Of a DNA stretch of 64,000 nucleotides, positions 19,438-59,668 are shown in pieces (the first letter of the stretch is position 1; the number at the start of each line of letters is the position of its first letter). The DNA comes from Tetramitus jugosus (lineage: Eukaryota; Protista; Heterolobosea), in assembly GCA_937625935.1 (NCBI GenBank), contig OW569351.1:372001-436000 (forward strand). Direction: 5' to 3'. Made by a program: the position numbers and the translations under genes. Below the pieces are notes generated by a model. That model did no database searches. It worked only from the letters and a program-made list of their open reading frames with translations, and was not told the origin of the DNA.

Positions 19438-21201
19438 TTAGCAGGATGTGAATGCAGGGCCTTCTCTTTGTATGTACTCTTCAATTGATTGGTTGCTGGC
19501 AGCCAATAAGAGACCCACAAATGGTGCGGATGGCTTGGTTGGTCTGGACTTGAATTCAGGGTGGTATTGAACACCGACATAGTATGGATGACTTCCGTTC
19601 ATCAACTCAATCACCTCTTGTCTCAATCCACTGTCGTCTTGACCAACAAACTTGAGTCCATTCTCTTCCAATTGAGGCACAAAGTCAGGGTTGACCTCAT
19701 ATCTGTGACGATGTCTTTCGCTCACTGCCTTAACCTCTGGAGCACCATAGAGCTTTGCAATCTTGGAGTGGAGAGCACTCTCCTTGAAAATTGTCTCTCT
19801 CTTTCCCAATCTCATTGTACCACCCATGTTCTCTCTGTCAATCTCAGGCATGAAAACAACCAATCTTTCACTTGGTTGTGGCTCGTTTTGGCTTTCAAAC
19901 TCTTCACTGTGAGCATTGGACAGACCCAAAACGTTTCTTGCATATTCAACAACTGCTAATTGCATACCGAGGCAAATGCCCAGGTATGGCTTATTGTTCT
20001 CTCTTGCATACTTTGCAGCAGCGATTTTTCCTTCGGTTCCTCTGTTACCGAAACCTCCTGGCACGAGAATACCGTGAGAACTCTTCAGGGCATTCCATGC
20101 TTCTTCATATTTGGCATCACTTGAGTTTTCAAGATCAGACGCCTCAACCCAAATCACCTCGACTCTTCTCTGAACAGCGAGAGATGCGTGATTCAGAGCC
20201 TTTGAAACTGATGTATAAGCATCAGTCAAGTCAGTGTACTTACCGACGAGAGCGATTCTTGTGGCATCGAGTGACTGAATTGCCTCATATCTCTTGGACA
20301 CCTTCTCTGTCCATTCCTTCAACTCAAATGAGTCATCAGCTGGCACAGCAGTGTTCAACTTTAACTTCTTGACAATCAACTTGTGAATTCCCTGTTCAGT
20401 CAACAGCAAAGGAACAGTGTAAATGTTGCCCACGTTGTGAACGCCAATGACACTCTCTGCGTCGACATGACAGAAACTGGAAATTTTTTGCTTGGTGGAT
20501 TCTGTGAGCTTAAACTCTGATCGGCAACAAATAATATCAGGTGAAAGTCCCAATGCTCTCAACTCTCGTACCGATTGTTGAGTAGGCTTTGTCTTTTGTT
20601 CACCGACAACTCCGAGCACAGGCACCAACGAAACATGAACCTCACAAATGTTGTCACGACCGACTCTGAACTGGAATTGTCTCATGGCTTCAATAAAAGG
20701 CATGGATTCAATATCACCGACAGTTCCTCCCAATTCAATCACACAGACATCTGGAGCCGATACAGCAGAATCAGCATCAGAAGCATTCAACAGAGCGATT
20801 GGACACTTTCCAGCCACTTGCTCCACCCAATCTTGAATCTCATTACAGATATGAGGCACAACCTGAACCGTCTTTCCCAAATAATCTCCTCTTCTCTCCT
20901 TTTGGATCACTTGATTGTAAACTTTTCCCGTCGTAATGTTGTTTTGTCGACAAAGTGTCACATCAATGAATCTCTCATAGTTTCCGAGATCCAAATCCAC
21001 TTCACCACCATCGTCCAACACAAACACTTCACCGTGTTCAAATGGTGACATGGTTCCAGCATCAATGTTGATATAAGGATCAATTTTGATGGCTGTGACC
21101 TTTAGTCCCATCTCTTTCAAGATTCTGCCAATAGAACTGGCAATAATGCCCTTGCCGACACCACTGAGCACACCTCCTGTAACCAAAATGTATTTGACCA
21201 T
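19438..21201 (-). CDS. CTPS: CTP synthase
   Basis: [28 protein letters not shown], glutaminase [20 protein letters not shown]. Confidence 0.97.
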
Positions 21202-32445: not shown

Positions 32446-35400
32446 TTACTCTGCAGTTATAAAAACTTCCTTTGCAGGCGGTCTGTTGTTATAGAAGGAA
32501 GACATTGAATGACCATATGAACCAGCACAGCAAATCACAACAACGTGACCATTGTAGCACTTATGCATCCATCTATCCTCACCGAATACATCTCCAGTTT
32601 CACAGATTGGACCCACAACTGTGTACTTTTGTTTTTCTACTGAGTCGTTGTTGTCGTGAGCGGTAGGGAATTCTGTTTCAGTATCATTCTGCTCGATCAT
32701 ACCAGACAAATTCACAATTTCGTGATAAGCATCGTACAGAGTTGGTCTGATCAAAGAGTTCATTCCAGTTTCGAGACCAACATATGACATGTCTTCAGAC
32801 TTCTTCTTTGTTTGAGTAACTCTAGCCAATAGAATACCAGAGTCAGCAGAGAGGAAACGACCTGGTTCAATCCAAAACTTCAATCCACGTTGCTGGATAA
32901 AGTCTGCATACTTGCGAGTGCCGTGCATTAGAGAATGCAAGTGATGATACACTTGAGAAATGTCCAGAGGTTGATCTTCTGGTCTGTATGGGACACCTAA
33001 TCCACCACCAAGGTCAAGTGTTCTGACATTTTGGAACAAACTACTCTGGCTGTTCATCAATAGATCCAAAAAGAACTGAGCTGTTTCTTTCCAGGCTTTT
33101 GTTTCCTTTAGAATACCTGAACCTACATGAGAATGTAGACCAACAACAGTTGTTCTATGTTGTTCACAGTACATGGCCAATTTGTCAAGATCGGCAAGTG
33201 GAATTCCAAACTTACTGCTCACACCAGCTGTTTTCACTTTGCTATGATGTCCTTTGCCCATTCCAGTATCAATGCGCAGGAAAATTTCCTTGTCAGTGAA
33301 CAACTCTGGCCATGCCTCAATGGCAAATACATTGTCGAGTGTCATGTTCACTCCGAGCTCAATACCACGAGCGTAGTCCTCTCTTGGAGCAAAGTTTGGC
33401 GTAAACAAGATTCTCTTGCGATCAATGGTTGGGAATAGAGACAGTACTAGATCCATTTCTTGTGTGCTGACACATTCAAATCCGAATTTCATGCTCTCGA
33501 TCAACTTCAAAATTTCTGGATGAGGATTCGCTTTCAATGCGAAGAAAATGTAGTTGACAACAGAGGATTTGTTGTCACGGATCAATGTTTCAACCAACTG
33601 AGTAGCTCGTTTTTTGATGGTTTCACCACTGTAGACGTACAGTGGTTGATTTTCATTGGCAATTAACTCCAATAACTGCGAAGATTGTTGTCTCCACCAG
33701 ACATCCTTTCCTGATACAACGTTGGATGTGACTGTGGATGGTCTTTGGGCAGCAGCTTGAGCATTGTAATCAGCCAACAATGTTCTCCATTCTTGTCCTA
33801 TTGCACTATTCAATCCAGCTTCCTTATCTCCCTTGAAGATCCATTCATGCACATCTGCAATAAGCACCTCTATTCCTTCAATATGTGGAACAATAAATGA
33901 TAGATTGACATTGGAATGAGCTTGTGAGATCATATGGATTGGATGAGTTGTGTGAGATGATGTCGTGTGGAACATTTGGAATACTGGACTCAATGTATGA
34001 ATCAGTCCACGAATGTTCGTTCCCACTAAACTGAGAGATGCACACGGACCAATGGTTGAAACTCTGCAGTTCATTGATTGCAGATCACGCACTAGCATGT
34101 TGATTCTATCCATACGATCGAATGATTCATCTGATTTGTCTTCTGATGCAGCATCGAGTGAACAGGTAACGTTGGCTTCTGAGGTGGTCACATAGTCCAC
34201 AGACAGATTATACCTCTTGAACAGTGCAAAGACATCACTCAAGAAACCAACTTGTTGCCACATAGCGAATGTATCGATTGAGATCATAATGATACCAGTT
34301 CTCAAACACACGCTCTTGATTTGAGGTTCTGCTTCCTCTGTAGAATCAGATGCAGTAATGTATGTTCCCTCTGTTTTCCCAATGGCGAAATGAATTGACT
34401 TGATTCTCACAGAGATATTGTCTTCTTGGAAGAGCTTCAACAGAGAGGGTGAGATGAAACGGGATTCTGATGCCGCAGCAATTTCCAGCGCTTCAACAAA
34501 GCTGAGTTCATTGATCACACGTGCACTGTCAATCGGCTGAGAGACACCAGGCAATTGACACGTGGACAAACCATAGCCCGACACATAAAATGATACTTCG
34601 CTGCACTCTAGCAATTTGGCAACACAAGCAACCGTACACTCTGCACCAAACTTTGGATCAAACGAAAACAGTCTATGGTTTCCCATGAGATCTCTCACAG
34701 AGTTGCCCTGAAGCACCACAATTCTACTTTGAACATTTTGTTCAATTCGATTCAACAACTCCATTCGTTTCGCTTCAGAGTAATCAAGATTGGAAGGAAC
34801 AGTGTTCAACGCACACGCAGCAGCAGCAGTAGCATCTTGTGCCTCGACCATTGTTGTCAAATAGAGACTAGAGTCCACAAACTCTGCTTCCATGTGCAAC
34901 ACACGATTCAAATACAAGCAAAAGATGCGTGAGACAATTTCGGAGCAAACAGACAAAATTTCTGCTCGAATACTGGAGGTGACCGATCCAACCAGACTAA
35001 TACCCAACAACAATCGCATCACTCTCTGAAACAATTGTTCCAATTCCAAATTTTCACTCAACAACGTGTCCAAAGTCACAACATTTTGTTGTTGAGGAGG
35101 CACAGAAGAGAACAATTGATCGACCCAATGTGCAAAATTCTCTCTCCACACATTGAATCCATCCACAAAATGATCATCACCACTTCCAGAGTAATCATCA
35201 AATGATTCTTCACCAGTGCAAGTAGAAGATGGTTGTTGATGTTGATTCCAAGTCAATGAAACATTGAATCGATCAGTCATTGAAACAATTGCATTTTTTG
35301 TGGAAAGAGTGTTCGTGTTCATCGTATTGTGATTGGCAGGTTGAGAGCAACAACTCTCTTGGATGAGGTCATTCAAATGTGTGAGGTCATCTTCACCTGA

Positions 35401-35547
35401 TGGACAAATGAGAATAATTTTACCACCACCAACACCACCAGAGCTATGATTGTGATTGTCATAGTGATGACGCAGAATTTCAATGATTCTTTGATGAGAG
35501 GCATGTATGCTCTGTGGTTGGAAATGAATCAGTTGGTGATGAGTCAT
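32446..35547 (-). CDS. Aspartate kinase(-like)-ACT-diaminopimelate decarboxylase fusion (LysC-LysA type)
   Basis: Intact DAPDC motifs FALKANP, FECVS, HSHVGSG, DLGGG, EPGRF, GPICETGD; ACT region MWQQVGFLSDVF..SVDYVTTSEANVT; degenerate kinase N-terminus; no introns. Confidence 0.92.
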   Translation of the reverse strand: MTHHQLIHFQPQSIHASHQRIIEILRHHYDNHNHSSGGVGGGKIILICPSGEDDLTHLNDLIQESCCSQPANHNTMNTNTLSTKNAIVSMTDRFNVSLTWNQHQQPSSTCTGEESFDDYSGSGDDHFVDGFNVWRENFAHWVDQLFSSVPPQQQNVVTLDTLLSENLELEQLFQRVMRLLLGISLVGSVTSSIRAEILSVCSEIVSRIFCLYLNRVLHMEAEFVDSSLYLTTMVEAQDATAAAACALNTVPSNLDYSEAKRMELLNRIEQNVQSRIVVLQGNSVRDLMGNHRLFSFDPKFGAECTVACVAKLLECSEVSFYVSGYGLSTCQLPGVSQPIDSARVINELSFVEALEIAAASESRFISPSLLKLFQEDNISVRIKSIHFAIGKTEGTYITASDSTEEAEPQIKSVCLRTGIIMISIDTFAMWQQVGFLSDVFALFKRYNLSVDYVTTSEANVTCSLDAASEDKSDESFDRMDRINMLVRDLQSMNCRVSTIGPCASLSLVGTNIRGLIHTLSPVFQMFHTTSSHTTHPIHMISQAHSNVNLSFIVPHIEGIEVLIADVHEWIFKGDKEAGLNSAIGQEWRTLLADYNAQAAAQRPSTVTSNVVSGKDVWWRQQSSQLLELIANENQPLYVYSGETIKKRATQLVETLIRDNKSSVVNYIFFALKANPHPEILKLIESMKFGFECVSTQEMDLVLSLFPTIDRKRILFTPNFAPREDYARGIELGVNMTLDNVFAIEAWPELFTDKEIFLRIDTGMGKGHHSKVKTAGVSSKFGIPLADLDKLAMYCEQHRTTVVGLHSHVGSGILKETKAWKETAQFFLDLLMNSQSSLFQNVRTLDLGGGLGVPYRPEDQPLDISQVYHHLHSLMHGTRKYADFIQQRGLKFWIEPGRFLSADSGILLARVTQTKKKSEDMSYVGLETGMNSLIRPTLYDAYHEIVNLSGMIEQNDTETEFPTAHDNNDSVEKQKYTVVGPICETGDVFGEDRWMHKCYNGHVVVICCAGSYGHSMSSFYNNRPPAKEVFITAE

Positions 35548-44962: not shown

Positions 44963-46007
44963 TTATGTGGTTCTACGCATAGTGGTTTGCTTTGGATCTG
45001 ATTGAGGTGTATAAATCATGGATACAGATATTGTTCTGGGTGATGCTGATGACATATCTATGGATGAATTAAACGTTGGAGAGGGTGTTTCTGTAGTCTT
45101 CGTTATCGTCTTGATGCCCGATGCTGCTGAGATGTTCTGTCTCGGTGTTGGAACTGGAGACAATGATATCATTTCTTTGTGCTCCGTTGAAATGTTACCA
45201 TTTTTGCTGCCGTTTGATCGACAATGTCTCATTGGTTTATCAGAATTGGATGGACCAGGTGTAAAATTTGGTGATTGTTGTGGAGCTTCTGGTTTCAATT
45301 TCATTGCTATCTGATTGTCACCTCTTCTGAACTGAGATATTGATGTACTATCTGATATATTGATCATTCTATCGTTCATGTTCTTATTATTGTGATTCCT
45401 TTGAATATGCGATGTGTGTGGTACCTGCGTGGGAAACTTCAACGAGGGCACTGTTTGTTTTTGTTCAGCTATTCCTACTTGTACAGCTGGAGAGCTGCGG
45501 ACACCTGATTTAGAAGGGATGAGTTGTGATAATGGTGGAGATTTCGGAGATGACTCATACTGGTGCGGTTCTTCTGTCTCGACATTGTTACTCTTCGCCC
45601 TGATATCTGTTCTATTGGGCGTCTGGTAGGTGCTGCGAACAGATGTATTCCTATGCTTCAAATTATCCTGATTCGGCGAATAATAATTAAGGTATTCCTC
45701 AATGGTAGAGTTGTGATTATCACTCGTCGTACTTTTGTTAACATTGTTCAGTTTTTCCTTCAAATCCACAATCTCCAGCTCTAGTTCTTGTCTTCGGCTG
45801 ATCTCGGATTCTAGTCGATCTTGAAGTGTGAGCATATTCCTATTGAGTTGTTTTAGATATTCTCTGTTCTTCTCTTCGATTTTCTGTGCGGCATGAGTAA
45901 GTTTCAAAGTTCGATTTGATGCAGAGATCAATAATGAGTACCTGTTGTTGGATCAAGAGAGTCACAGCTTGCTCTAATTTTTCTATCCTCGACGTGTTCG
46001 TTTCCAT
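44963..46007 (-). CDS. Hypothetical protein: short coiled coil plus S/T/P-rich disordered tail
   Basis: Exon 1 METNTSRIEKLEQAVTLLIQQQ joined in frame by intron 45884-45941 (GTACTC..ACAG) to KIEEK. Confidence 0.7.
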
Positions 46008-46088
46008 ACTTTGTTTATTACGTTAATTCAACACAGCTCACGACTTAGGGTCGTGCATGAAAAGTTTTTCTCTTTCTTGCTTGTAAGG

Positions 46089-46111
46089 CAAAAGGACATC
46101 GCCCACCGAGG
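46089..46111. repeat. Displaced copy of tRNA-Lys 3' end plus trailer (23-bp direct repeat, distal copy)
   Basis: CAAAAGGACATCGCCCACCGAGG is identical to 46690-46712. Confidence 0.95.
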
Positions 46112-46689
46112 TTTATTTAGCCGCCAAATAAAGCGTTAATTGTTTTAAACAGTTTCTATCTTTTTTTTTTTTTTTTTAGAGAAAAAAAAATCTCTAGTAC
46201 AACTCCTTCACAGAATTGTAAACTTTCATAATTATTGAATGGTTTTTGTGGTAATTGTATATCCTCTATCCTCCTATATTTTGGAGACAATCCGACAAGC
46301 AACAATCTCGTTGTATACTCATTGTATACTGTCTACCTCAACATCATGGAGTTAAGGAAGTCAACTACCTGAGCCCTCGTTTTAAAAATGACCCAACCAG
46401 TTAATGTTGTTTCCCTGAGGTATCACCCTTCAACCTTATTTCAATCAATTCAAACTATTTAAATCCATCAACAGCCACGATTCCTTGGTAAATACAATAG
46501 GGGTAGAAGGTGGATGAAACAGCTGCCAATGAATGAGGGCAACAGTGAGATCAATCACCTCATGCTCGACCACGTCGCTAGATGTTCTCTTTCTTTTGAT
46601 TTTTGATTGTATTTTATGGTGTGTTTATTGTAAATACATTGTAAAACTTGTTGTAAATAAAAAGTCCGTCAAAAAGGCTCAGGCGGAGA
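46112..46689. mobile_element. Putative tRNA-3'-end-integrated element remnant (578 bp)
   Basis: Bounded by the perfect 23-bp repeat; AT-rich; T17 tract, hairpins, broken reading frames on the minus strand; no integrase or RT visible. Confidence 0.65.
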
Positions 46690-46700
46690 CAAAAGGACAT

Positions 46701-46773
46701 CGCCCACCGAGGGGCTCGAACCCTCGACCACAAGGTTAAGAGCCTTGCGCTCTACCGACTGAGCTAGACGGGC
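46701..46773 (-). tRNA. tRNA-Lys(CTT)
   Basis: GCCCGTCTAGCTCAGTCGGTAGAGCGCAAGGCTCTTAACCTTGTGGTCGAGGGTTCGAGCCCCTCGGTGGGCG folds to a cloverleaf; followed by a TTTT terminator. Confidence 0.97.
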
Positions 46774-46802
46774 TTGGATATCAAAAAACAATCATGTTTA
46801 CT

Positions 46803-47178
46803 CCAGATTATTCAAAAAGTAAAAAACTAGGAAAAAACGGAATAACATGGTGATTCAACAAAGGAACACGGCAACAGCCGTTATGCAGTGTGGACCACAA
46901 AGGCTCTAGGCCAAGTGACAGAGAGGTCGTCATTACCGGCAACAAGGTAAAGGCCATGGTCACTCGATACGTCGAGAGACCACATGATCCTCTCAAGGCT
47001 GTCAACAAGAGGTTGACGAAGATGTACGAGGAGCTGCTGACGGTGGTTGACGCACTGCGTCGACAGGTCACAGAACTCACCAAGGAATTGGCAAAGACAA
47101 AGGGTCAACAAACCAGTTCCGATACCGGAACTAGAAGTTGCATAAAGAACTGGTGTTAAAAACCAGATTATTCAAAAA
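46803..47178 (+). mobile_element. Putative tRNA-upstream insertion (344 bp) with 16-bp target-site duplication
   Basis: CCAGATTATTCAAAAA at 46803-46818 and 47163-47178; interior GC-richer than flanks with an 89-codon coiled-coil-like frame (46890-47159); ends in A5. Confidence 0.65.
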
Positions 47179-47205
47179 TCAGAATCCCTTGGATGCACTT
47201 TTTCT

Positions 47206-49981
47206 TTATCTATCAAGTTCGAAACGAATAAATTTGGTCATTTGAAGCGCTGCATCACTGTAGACGTGCGTTGGAAGGACAGTAGACATCTCCAAGAACA
47301 CAGAGCCCTCCTTCACAGTCACTGAAAATCCCAAGAGGTGAACACGTGACAACACGCGTTGAACCATGTCTTGATTCTGAATAATGGCATTTGCCAACTT
47401 CAGTTGACTGTCCAAGGGAATTTCTATCCGGTCAATCGATGTTCCAGATCTTCTTCCAACCTCTAACGATAAAAATACAAGAATCAATGGTACCCAATTG
47501 AAGAGTGTGGGTTGAATTTCATGACGTGGAACATCTCCAATCTCCTTCTCAATAGCCCTTTCAAATGCTTTGGTAATCGAGTAATTTGAAATGAACACAC
47601 CATCTCCATTCTTGAGTGAAGGATCCAAATCTGTGCGACGATTCGAGAATGAAAAGAAGTTGTTTAGTAATTATGGTTCGACTTGGACAACAAACACCTT
47701 TCAGAATTAACATACCTTCGATAAAGTTCAAAAATCCCTCGTAGAATGTAATCAGATGTGACACTGGATGCAATCTCACACTGTCATCCTTCCAGTCGTT
47801 AATATACTTGAATTGCGAATGATGATTTCGTATTTTGGACCTGATGAACACATAGGTCTCAACAGGTGTAGCATCTTCAGCACCAGGTTGCCATTCATTG
47901 TCCTCCTGGGCATCTTTATCTGTGTAGCCTCCACTCTTCTCCTTCTCGGCTCTTCTGTTAGCTGCTCTGTGTTGTCTAATTTCTAACAAGAGAACTTCTC
48001 TGAGACAAGACAACACCTCAATCTTCTTGGTCACAGTCTTATTTCTCAACAAATCTTCGAAAAGAGAGATGGATTTGGCATACGGTTGTTTGGCCTCAAT
48101 AGAATCAGCAGGTGGCAAAAACTTTGGACTGACACCGAATTGCTCTGGCATACAACTCTGCAAGCTGTCCAACTTTTGATTGATCAACAAATCCTTTTCT
48201 TGATAAGTAGCCTCGTACAAAGCGAAGAAAGTGTCACATAGCTTTCTGTGCACATATGCTGCAATAAAAGGCTCGCATTCCGAATAACATGATCGCTGCA
48301 ATGTAACCAATTCCTTCTCTGTCAGATCAGAGTTCAAAACTGTCTTGTATCGAGGTGGATTTACTGGACTCTTGTTTTTCTTTGTTGCCGGAGTGTCCTT
48401 GGAGTGTTCAATCATCTCCTCGAACATGTTGGTAAAATATTGCCAAATCTCATCAAAAAGGAAAGTGATGAAAGATTTCACATCTTCAATCGCATAGTGC
48501 ATTGTTGCTTGATGATTCTTCATTTGAACTTGACCAGAATTTGAATAGTAGGTGCCGTGGAATGCTGATAAGAAGAACTCAACCGCTGATTTGAAAAACA
48601 TTTGAGATTCGTCCAGATCCTTACTGCCATCGAGCAATACAAACACACACTTTTTAAAATCTTCCAAAGTTTTCAACTGAGAACAGAATGAATCAGCTAA
48701 AAGTTCTTGCTCTCCCTTGGCGACACTCTCGTGAATCACCTTGAATTGCTTCCACTTGAGTGAGTAAGATGGAGGTGTTGTTGAATCCTCTTGGAATCCA
48801 TATGTCTTGGTCATGTATCCTGCATTGAACTGATTTCGCAACTCGTTTGTAATCTCCTGTTTCATCTGATAGAGTGCAGTTGGAGAACACTTTTTGCATG
48901 TTCCCTTGTCAAATACTGCCTTGTCCACAGAGTTACCATTCCACTCACCTGACACATTGTCTCCATTGGGCCAGTACATGGTACCCTTTCCTTTGCGCAC
49001 ACCAAGCAAGAATGTTCCTTGAAACCTTTAGAAGACAAAAAGAACAACAGTACAACAATACACATACATGCACAATAGTAAACGAGCAAGTTAGACTCTC
49101 TGTCAATTGATCCACACTACAACAAGCAAAACGAACGAAAAAGCACGTACATTGTTCCATCATAATAGATAAAAGTACCATGACCATGGAACTTTCCTTC
49201 CTTCCATCCTCCAAAATAACGATTCTTGTTCGAAAACACTTGCACACCATATCCGTCCTTCATATTGTTCACAAACGAGCCAAAGTATCGATCATTTGGC
49301 TTGCAGTACAACTCACCTTCCTTTGTCTTATGGAAATCATTAATGTCCAAAATATCAAAATCCGATTTGGATTGATCAAGCTCTATATAGCCCCAATACT
49401 CGTAATTATTCTCGCAAGTAATCTTCCATTGAATGTTCGGCTTGGGCAGTCCGTCCAACCACTCACCAATCACTACCCACGATGACTTCTTCTTATCACT
49501 CGAATGATAGATTAATTTTCCGAATCCACATCGCTTACCATTCTCAAAGTCACCCTCATAGCATGATCCTGTTCACGAAATATTATTATTCGCATTTACA
49601 CATTCATTCACATGCATTATGCATTGAAATTGCAAAATTGTGTGTGTGTGAGACAAATGGAACAAAAAACACAACATTTTGGGCCCACCAGGTGTTTTCA
49701 ACAACAAAAAACTGCACAAATCAAGAAAGCATACCATTGGGATAGAGCAATGTGCCTGACCCATGAAACGTCTCAGAGTTCAATACACAAGTTCCAGTAT
49801 ATTCAAAATCACCCTTGTTCGTACTGAATTTGATCGTTTTGTGTTCAACGGCTGCGGAAGGTGAAGTCAATCCGGCCAATCCATTCTTTCTGCGTTGTAA
49901 GCTACTGGCTGACATAAAATCATCGTCGCATGACGTTTCTCTTTGACTGGTCAGCTTGAACAAACTACCTAACTTGAACAT
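47206..49981 (-). CDS. MORN-repeat + VPS9-domain protein (alsin-like Rab5 GEF architecture)
   Basis: Four exons join in frame (introns 49569-49734, 49026-49150, 47631-47715); N-terminal MORN repeats; VPS9-like PYAKSI..KKIEVL..PGAEDATPVETYVFIRS..QFKYI. Confidence 0.8.
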
Positions 49982-59571: not shown

Positions 59572-59668
59572 CTCCCATACCGGGACTCGAACCCGGGTCT
59601 TCCGGGAACTTTTGCATTTCAGCTTGGAAGTGAAAGCCGGATATCCTAACCAGCTAGACTATATGGGA
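59572..59668 (-). tRNA. tRNA-Glu(TTC) with 24-nt intron (59607-59630)
   Basis: TCCCATA/TATGGGA acceptor stem; TCCGG-CTTTCA[intron]C-CCGGA anticodon arm; GTTCGAGTC T-loop; T6 terminator. Confidence 0.93.

Follow-up and report, generated by a model that had tools for sequence, protein, structure and literature searches.

An intact tRNA-Lys gene between two unrelated, decayed inserts of likely mobile-element origin

An intact tRNA-Lys(CTT) gene lies between two inserts of unrelated sequence, each bounded by direct repeats, in the 64-kb window, i.e. the whole stretch of DNA that was analysed. With a probability of about 0.6, we read both inserts as decayed insertions of likely mobile elements, where the insert upstream of the tRNA (U) is a copy, shortened by deletions, of a one-gene element which likely retrotransposes to a position ~45 bp before tRNA genes.

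The tRNA-Lys locus and its direct repeats

The window is eukaryotic and gene-dense, with ~40% GC and housekeeping genes present. The tRNA-Lys(CTT) gene was located by tRNA calling on the minus strand at 46701–46773 and is a multi-copy gene whose copies have their trailer in common. On its left, a minus-strand gene for a coiled-coil protein with no Pfam family begins with the start codon at 46007, GT-AG ends suggesting a first exon of 45953–46007. On its right, the last ORF of the neighboring host locus (47206–47670, minus strand; stop codon at 47206–47208) lies downstream of and overlaps an ORF with MORN and VPS9 matches, both of which are weak in Pfam. The second tRNA gene of the window (59572–59668, with a 24-nt intron), which reads by eye as tRNA-Glu(TTC) and is given no isotype by ARAGORN, carries an insert on neither side.

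The first-pass annotation had described the tRNA-Lys spacer as the only intergenic region above 1 kb, which, to the extent that ORF maps reveal it, is correct, the next-largest gap without ORFs of at least 100 aa being 838 bp long. The two pairs of direct repeats were recovered as it had given them, at 46086–46111/46687–46712 around the downstream insert (D; 25 of 26 positions identical, including a 23-nt exact match) and at 46803–46818/47163–47178 around U (16/16). Likewise, its spacer arithmetic was reproduced, as removing each insert with one repeat copy leaves 92 bp, the tRNA and 72 bp, compared to 88 bp, tRNA and 82 bp at the second tRNA gene. U and D share no obvious sequence, in agreement with the same annotation, their best match being 10 nt (E 0.29), and a second copy of either is absent within the 64-kb window. 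Transposable-element domains were found in none of the 37 ORFs scanned with Pfam (of 84 ORFs listed), several long ORFs being without a family.

In 1000 dinucleotide shuffles of 46008–47205, the longest exact repeat was 16 nt once and never 17 nt or more, and hence the 23 nt of the D pair were never reached. Among 102 other real windows of 1198 bp, seven contained an exact repeat of at least 14 nt and one a repeat of 16 nt; because 16 nt also occurs in 1 of these 102, the 16-bp pair around U is no proof by itself.

The locus was compared with metagenome contigs, 20 of the 22 listed runs (15 studies) containing part of it. Seven runs were compared in detail, including X1, X2 and X6, which belong to one study and may include the source of the window. 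A misassembly joining repeat nodes is unlikely and receives very little weight from us: the locus contains several multi-copy pieces and is spanned as a whole by none of the listed contigs, but contigs of other runs bridge U at its two junctions, in one case from an independent study (an X2 record of 46762–46897 with 0 differences and an X8 record of 47106–47225). Furthermore, X1 shows the junction of D with the tRNA as well as the left flank continuing into the tRNA fragment followed by 5 nt of D.

Judged from one gene, the host is likely a heterolobosean. The best named match of the window's CTP synthase (19438–21201) is that of Acrasis kona (63%), with which it groups apart from dictyostelids (SH-aLRT 99) in a quick one-gene tree of the window protein and 45 matches chosen from 120 listed. 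The clade of the window and Acrasis sequences is itself sister to dictyostelid-type sequences with moderate support (87), possibly by gene transfer or noise.

The upstream insert

Insert U (46819–47162, plus strand) comprises 344 bp with 48% GC. Its left direct repeat (46803–46818, plus strand) is located 30–45 bp upstream of the tRNA and is identical to the right copy (47163–47178, plus strand), the pair representing a probable target-site duplication. U aligns in six blocks with positions 96–824 of the metagenome contig L003, where 311 of 323 aligned nucleotides are identical (96%). Relative to L003, it has internal deletions of 4, 9, 7, 378 and 8 bp, with microhomologies of 2, 2, 0, 3 and 3 as determined by script, and has lost its 3′ part. 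The first element of L003 is whole, ~1.3 kb long, and contains a single ORF (113–1261) coding for 382 aa. This ORF is on the plus strand of L003 and its tRNA on the opposite strand, matching the plus-strand U and minus-strand tRNA of the window, so that element and tRNA stand head-to-head at both loci, the 5′ end of U pointing towards the tRNA's 5′ end. The gap between tRNA and element is 45 bp in the window as well as in L003; this gap and orientation apply to both of the two U-family copies whose 5′ flank was visible, one alone being independent of the selected window.

The tRNA of L003 (positions 1–51) belongs to the intron type, is different from tRNA-Lys and is represented by its 5′ half, with a TAT anticodon read from the sequence. 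It matches positions 1–51 of the Rfam tRNA model only weakly (E 1) because the contig end cuts the tRNA. A tRNA 5′-half pattern, which was composed after L003 had been seen, matched solely the two window tRNAs and L003 at nt 51 in 124,693 bases. The L003 contig may be chimeric, and no target-site duplication was found in it. In the window, 12 extra nucleotides lie between the left repeat and the beginning of the L003 homology, and the 3′ end of U before the right repeat has five A only. Directly behind the first L003 element, positions 1391–2790 hold a second, paralogous ORF1-only element (50% protein identity), an arrangement expected if new copies insert between the tRNA and older copies. 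The 3′ ends of the two share 69 nt at 68% (E 3e-6) with A-rich termini, and neither ORF is followed by an ORF2 or reverse transcriptase (RT), the longest representative match being 340 aa.

The U core was much deeper than its flanks in all four runs examined for U. Read depths, which are sums or means over contigs (single contigs for the U core) and not copy numbers, amounted to 134 for the core versus 6.8 for the flank in X8 (~20-fold) and to 148 versus 4.0–4.8 in X14 (31–37-fold), the two being independent metagenomes. Loose ends were observed at or near the deletion points of U, at 46861, 46941, 47108 and 47152, where those at 46861, 46941 and 47152 resemble L003 by eye. Furthermore, an X8 contig joins 46782 to 47196 and thereby skips U; it represents a probable U-free allele, in which no single-copy 16-mer was seen at the empty site, the letters in between being unlisted. 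An X4 record contains 128 unaligned letters left of 47198, possibly from a third allele of the U site.

The 382-aa U protein has no Pfam family. Searches yielded five relatives of near-equal length and 37 representatives among 1.84 billion, none longer than 340 aa, and the family falls into at least five subfamilies of 26–98% identity. All 40 listed U-family cluster proteins are on contigs of at most 3,463 bp, which lends weak support to the element being a short unit. With the 101-aa window ORF as the sole query no homologue was retrieved, neither U nor D was detected in viral contigs or in prokaryote genomes, and five of the six metagenome loci from the U pattern scan were discarded as isolated 22–23-nt matches in unrelated DNA, L003 alone being homologous.

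An AF2 model of residues 1–226, based on a 28-sequence alignment, reached a pLDDT of 84 and contains two beta-alpha-beta-beta-alpha-beta domains followed by a 41-residue helix at 181–221, and we predict two RRM domains preceding a long helix. Foldseek searches with this model returned tandem-RRM proteins as the best rows (E 4.6e-6, query TM up to 0.35), and VIA gave a Z of 10.0 with 70 aligned and an rmsd of 2.2. SFPQ/NONO rank among the best fold matches, and a tandem RRM with helix also fits host proteins; a fold in common with RRM proteins does not establish function. L1 ORF1p was not among the fold matches listed, and no CCHC motif was found in the U-family alignment. The matches of a first fold model (pLDDT 51) were unreliable and set aside, the PDB sequence search was uninformative, and in the Atlas all leads for the U ORF were below 0.8, with no lead for a D frame.

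Many non-LTR ORF1 proteins contain RRMs (PMC4120745, as excerpted), and the U protein agrees with ORF1 types I–IV in its predicted RRM domains. Its order of RRM, RRM and helix without a CCHC knuckle nevertheless fits none of these types as summarised in the available part of that paper. Compared to type I, a CCHC after the RRMs is absent; compared to type II, the helix follows the RRMs instead of a coiled coil preceding a single RRM and CTD; and with respect to the PHD and esterase types, the protein has no Pfam family.

The best reading of these data is a non-autonomous, ORF1-only retroelement family that targets regions upstream of tRNA genes, the targeting resting on two loci; as a new and unnamed family of a known kind, the upstream half of the locus is well supported. 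Its protein would be an ORF1-type RNA-binding protein, and the element RNA would be copied by target-primed reverse transcription, with an autonomous partner, not seen here, providing endonuclease and RT in trans. The 16-bp repeat would then be the duplication arising from a staggered cut, and the site may be chosen by tethering to a Pol III factor bound upstream of tRNA genes, a mode reported for TRE5-A ORF1 with TFIIIB. Both inserts would later have decayed through deletions. Improbably, the U family could instead be a multigene family of the host that codes for RNA-binding proteins, or consist of retrocopies of such a family, its proximity to tRNA genes at two loci being incidental. The fold matches to host RRM proteins, a codon use like that of host genes and the lack of a nearby RT would agree with such a family, but it leaves unexplained the agreement in the 45-bp gap and in orientation between tRNA genes of two isotypes, the ~20–37-fold depth with many decayed copies, the direct repeats at both U edges together with the probable empty allele, and the lack of relatives outside the small U family in the 1.84 billion representatives (37 matches).

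Among known elements, TRE5 inserts ~40–54 bp and NLTR-B 39–64 bp upstream from the mature tRNA (PMC5911963, PMC3159450, in the excerpts available). TRE5-A has its 5′ end facing the tRNA 5′ end, and TRE5-A.2, which has a large deletion in ORF2, is described as mobilised in trans (excerpts of PMC5911963, PMC3159450, PMC5633606). The retroelement proposed for U resembles Dictyostelium TRE5-A and TRE5-A.2 and Polysphondylium NLTR-B in its 45-bp gap and its orientation, and TRE5-A.2 also in that an ORF2 is absent from the element, whereas it differs in a host grouping with Acrasis and not with dictyostelids and in that no APE/RT partner was seen. No named TRE protein occurs among the U search matches, and U is not filed as TRE5 because an ORF2 partner and ORF1 homology are not shown. 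The accessible text of PMC5006619 calls TRE targeting unique to dictyostelids and describes TRE5-B with 5,971 bp and one full-length copy. HAL1 (half-L1), a non-autonomous element with ORF1p only (PMC5753468, in part), is similar to U in coding for ORF1 alone; in contrast, L1 ORF1p has the order coiled coil, RRM and CTD compared to the predicted RRM-RRM-helix, and HAL1 is not described as tRNA-targeted in the available part of the same paper.

The downstream insert

Insert D (46112–46686; 575 bp, 35% GC; probably oriented on the minus strand) is located between an outer repeat copy (46086–46111, minus strand), consisting of the last 12–13 nt of tRNA-Lys from just after the B box and the T4 trailer, and an inner copy (46687–46712, minus strand), the real tRNA 3′ end with its trailer. 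Its outer parts (~46112–46410 and 46580–46686) are multi-copy and its middle is low-copy, with a depth near or below single copy, other D copies continuing into sequence absent from the window. The D ends were ~4–5 times deeper than the flank, at 135–158 versus 31.7 in X1 and 41–50 versus 11.3 in X4, again as read depths and not copy numbers. The outer junction 46111/46112 was constant in X1, X4 and X6, whereas the tRNA-side junction was variable, with joints at 46574, 46615 and 46660/1. Joints leading from the tRNA-side part of D back to its far end were present in five of the seven runs (X1, X2, X4, X6 and, weakly at a depth of 2, X14). In the listed X4 and X6 records these head-to-tail copies pass through the tRNA fragment into 46112 onward, while the X2 joint is without the tRNA fragment. 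A joint of the intact tRNA 5′ end to the far end of D was not listed in any of the seven runs; X8 did show a joint with 30-nt sides at this 5′ end.

No coding signal was apparent in D, for which one of 24 frame scores in the codon-usage test was positive and eight short frames gave no Pfam match besides one chance-level row, and neither a coding master nor an enzyme was recovered. D has no terminal poly(A); its A run lies 48 nt inside, and X1 and X4 have a version of this run that is shorter by 7–8 nt. In folding, its terminal regions do not surpass shuffled sequence (z −1.5 and −0.1) and the end hairpins are not significant; a 7-bp inverted repeat around a 7-bp spacer adjoins the outer repeat. 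Readings of D as RRM-coding and then as two divergent gene ends were both dropped after the codon-usage and Pfam tests. The tRNA fragment was also considered as a primer-binding site, which was rejected because it has the genomic trailer and not a CCA complement.

D is most likely a decayed site-specific element. Tentatively, and with somewhat less than even confidence, we rank a sequence-specific insertion of the non-LTR type first of three readings, neither an RT nor a restriction-like endonuclease (RLE) having been found. D would be an internally deleted insertion, made by a cut 12–13 nt inside the tRNA 3′ end with a stagger of ~26 nt. Such an insertion would leave the tRNA intact and regenerate the target, and therefore copies could stack in tandem. 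Sequence-specific RLE non-LTR elements (NeSL-1_TV, LIN15/LIN25, Utopia, CRE) target small multicopy RNA genes including tRNAs, with a precise 3′ and a varied 5′ boundary, their duplications measuring 20 bp in the Utopia elements of reptiles and varying in size in CRE (PMC4640811, PMC12278014, both as excerpted). With one constant and one variable junction and a 26-bp duplication, D may be similar to them, though its copies were not seen at distinct flanking loci; it differs in that neither an RT nor an RLE was found for it and in the absence of a terminal poly(A). NeSL is described as deleting target sequence in the accessible part of PMC3636483, whereas the D duplication keeps the tRNA whole.

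Two other origins of D were weighed against this insertion. Bacterial islands carry the tRNA 3′ end or use it as an attachment site, and D could in the same manner be a DNA element integrated by a recombinase, the head-to-tail junction being the attachment-site junction of tandem or circular forms. The repeat that starts just after the B box and restores the whole tRNA, the 7-bp inverted repeat abutting the outer repeat, and the existing joined form of D end, repeat and D start are all consistent with this, and tyrosine-recombinase retroelements occur in other Discoba (PMC12278014, in part). Integration by a recombinase nevertheless appears unlikely: none was seen for D, the inner junction (46574, 46615, 46660/1) is variable, unlike conservative recombination, the termini fold no better than shuffled sequence (z −1.5, −0.1), VIPER and TATE make no target duplication according to the available text of PMC12278014, and viral contigs are without D patterns. 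Slightly less unlikely is a relic of a tandem duplication of the tRNA plus spacer, in which the 5′ 60 nt of one copy were deleted before unequal exchange amplified the shortened unit, with no insertion enzyme involved. Many tRNA-Lys copies indeed share the trailer and differ beyond it (loose ends at 46688–46691 in X1, X6 and X9), D is without coding signal, and the depth of the head-to-tail junction is near the single-locus level. Against such a relic, an array predicts the intact tRNA 5′ end joined to the far end of D, which was listed in none of the seven runs even though the X8 joint at the tRNA 5′ end was detectable; moreover, loose ends correspond to longer interiors in other D copies, and the spacer is normal once D is removed.

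Further comparison of the site-specific element proposed for D with named families gave partial likenesses. TRE3 lands 40–150 bp and Skipper-2 8–23 bp downstream of tRNA genes (PMC5911963, excerpted); D likewise lies downstream of a tRNA gene in a compact genome, but its repeat takes in the last 12–13 nt of the tRNA and its position is thus not wholly downstream. Dada DNA transposons use fixed sites in tRNA genes, occur as tandem and internally deleted copies and make a 6–7 bp duplication (PMC3706591, in part). D may share the fixed site and the tandem, internally deleted copies and differs in a 26-bp repeat that restores the tRNA, as opposed to a 6–7 bp duplication splitting the gene, and it falls outside Dada on this account. 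Replitron repeats are short, and tRNA is not mentioned in the available part of PMC10288648.

Targeting of tRNA genes and further observations at the locus

The first-pass annotation had taken the locus as a landing site for at least two independent element families. For U, a multi-copy element is well supported by the whole relative with its own ORF, another copy next to a tRNA with equal distance and orientation, the high depth and the probable empty allele; for D the multi-copy ends, the fixed junction and the head-to-tail copies argue for one moderately, a coding master not having been found. The wider view of the same annotation, with tRNA genes acting as safe havens, would so far be based on the two U-family copies with a known 5′ flank, one of them in the selected window, whose other tRNA gene is free of inserts. 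Its analogy to Dictyostelium is a close fit for U and does not extend to D, whose repeat begins inside the tRNA, unlike the downstream landing of TRE3 and Skipper-2.

Yeasts and dictyostelids are documented to have elements that insert at defined positions upstream of tRNA genes, which is cited as evolutionary convergence among compact genomes (PMC5911963, in the part available). We found no report of tRNA-targeted insertion in Heterolobosea in the literature covered, which included two Acrasis papers by keyword and lay outside most subscription journals and Repbase; bioRxiv supplements could list Acrasis TE families. A further example, from a lineage that likely belongs to Discoba and with its ORF1 built differently, would help to probe how general a solution the tethering to the Pol III pre-initiation complex is, and the U family supplies a small, natural and unnamed protein, predicted to be a targeting protein, for study. 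D, in turn, shows a way to use a tRNA gene without destroying it. The most far-reaching reading, which we regard as doubtful, is that TRE5-style targeting arose independently in a heterolobosean, in a family of ORF1-only elements with tandem RRMs, and that the same organism harbors a second element which, like bacterial islands, integrates via the tRNA 3′ end and restores the gene. If true, two different landing signals would be in use in a eukaryote, one tRNA promoter being the first and one tRNA sequence the second.

The depth of tRNA-Lys(CTT), again no copy number, was ~27 times that of the flank in X1 and ~35 times in X4, where other organisms may add to it; such depth suggests many copies for a compact genome. 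At the loose ends at 46688–46691, other tRNA-Lys copies share the trailer and then run into at least two other long, deep contigs, which could be additional downstream elements or else repeat units of the tRNA. The two X6 contigs beyond the shared trailer are 567 and 870 bp long with depths of 405 and 275, and one flank type is also found in the RNA run X9, whose coverage over 45850–46830 is on the tRNA only. The left host gene shows an 18-nt in-frame length polymorphism at 45566 in X2, X4 and X8. Elsewhere in the window, a 1033-aa ORF (32446–35547) combines an ACT domain with a diaminopimelate/ornithine decarboxylase domain, an architecture which we take to resemble bacterial aspartate kinase–DAP decarboxylase fusions.
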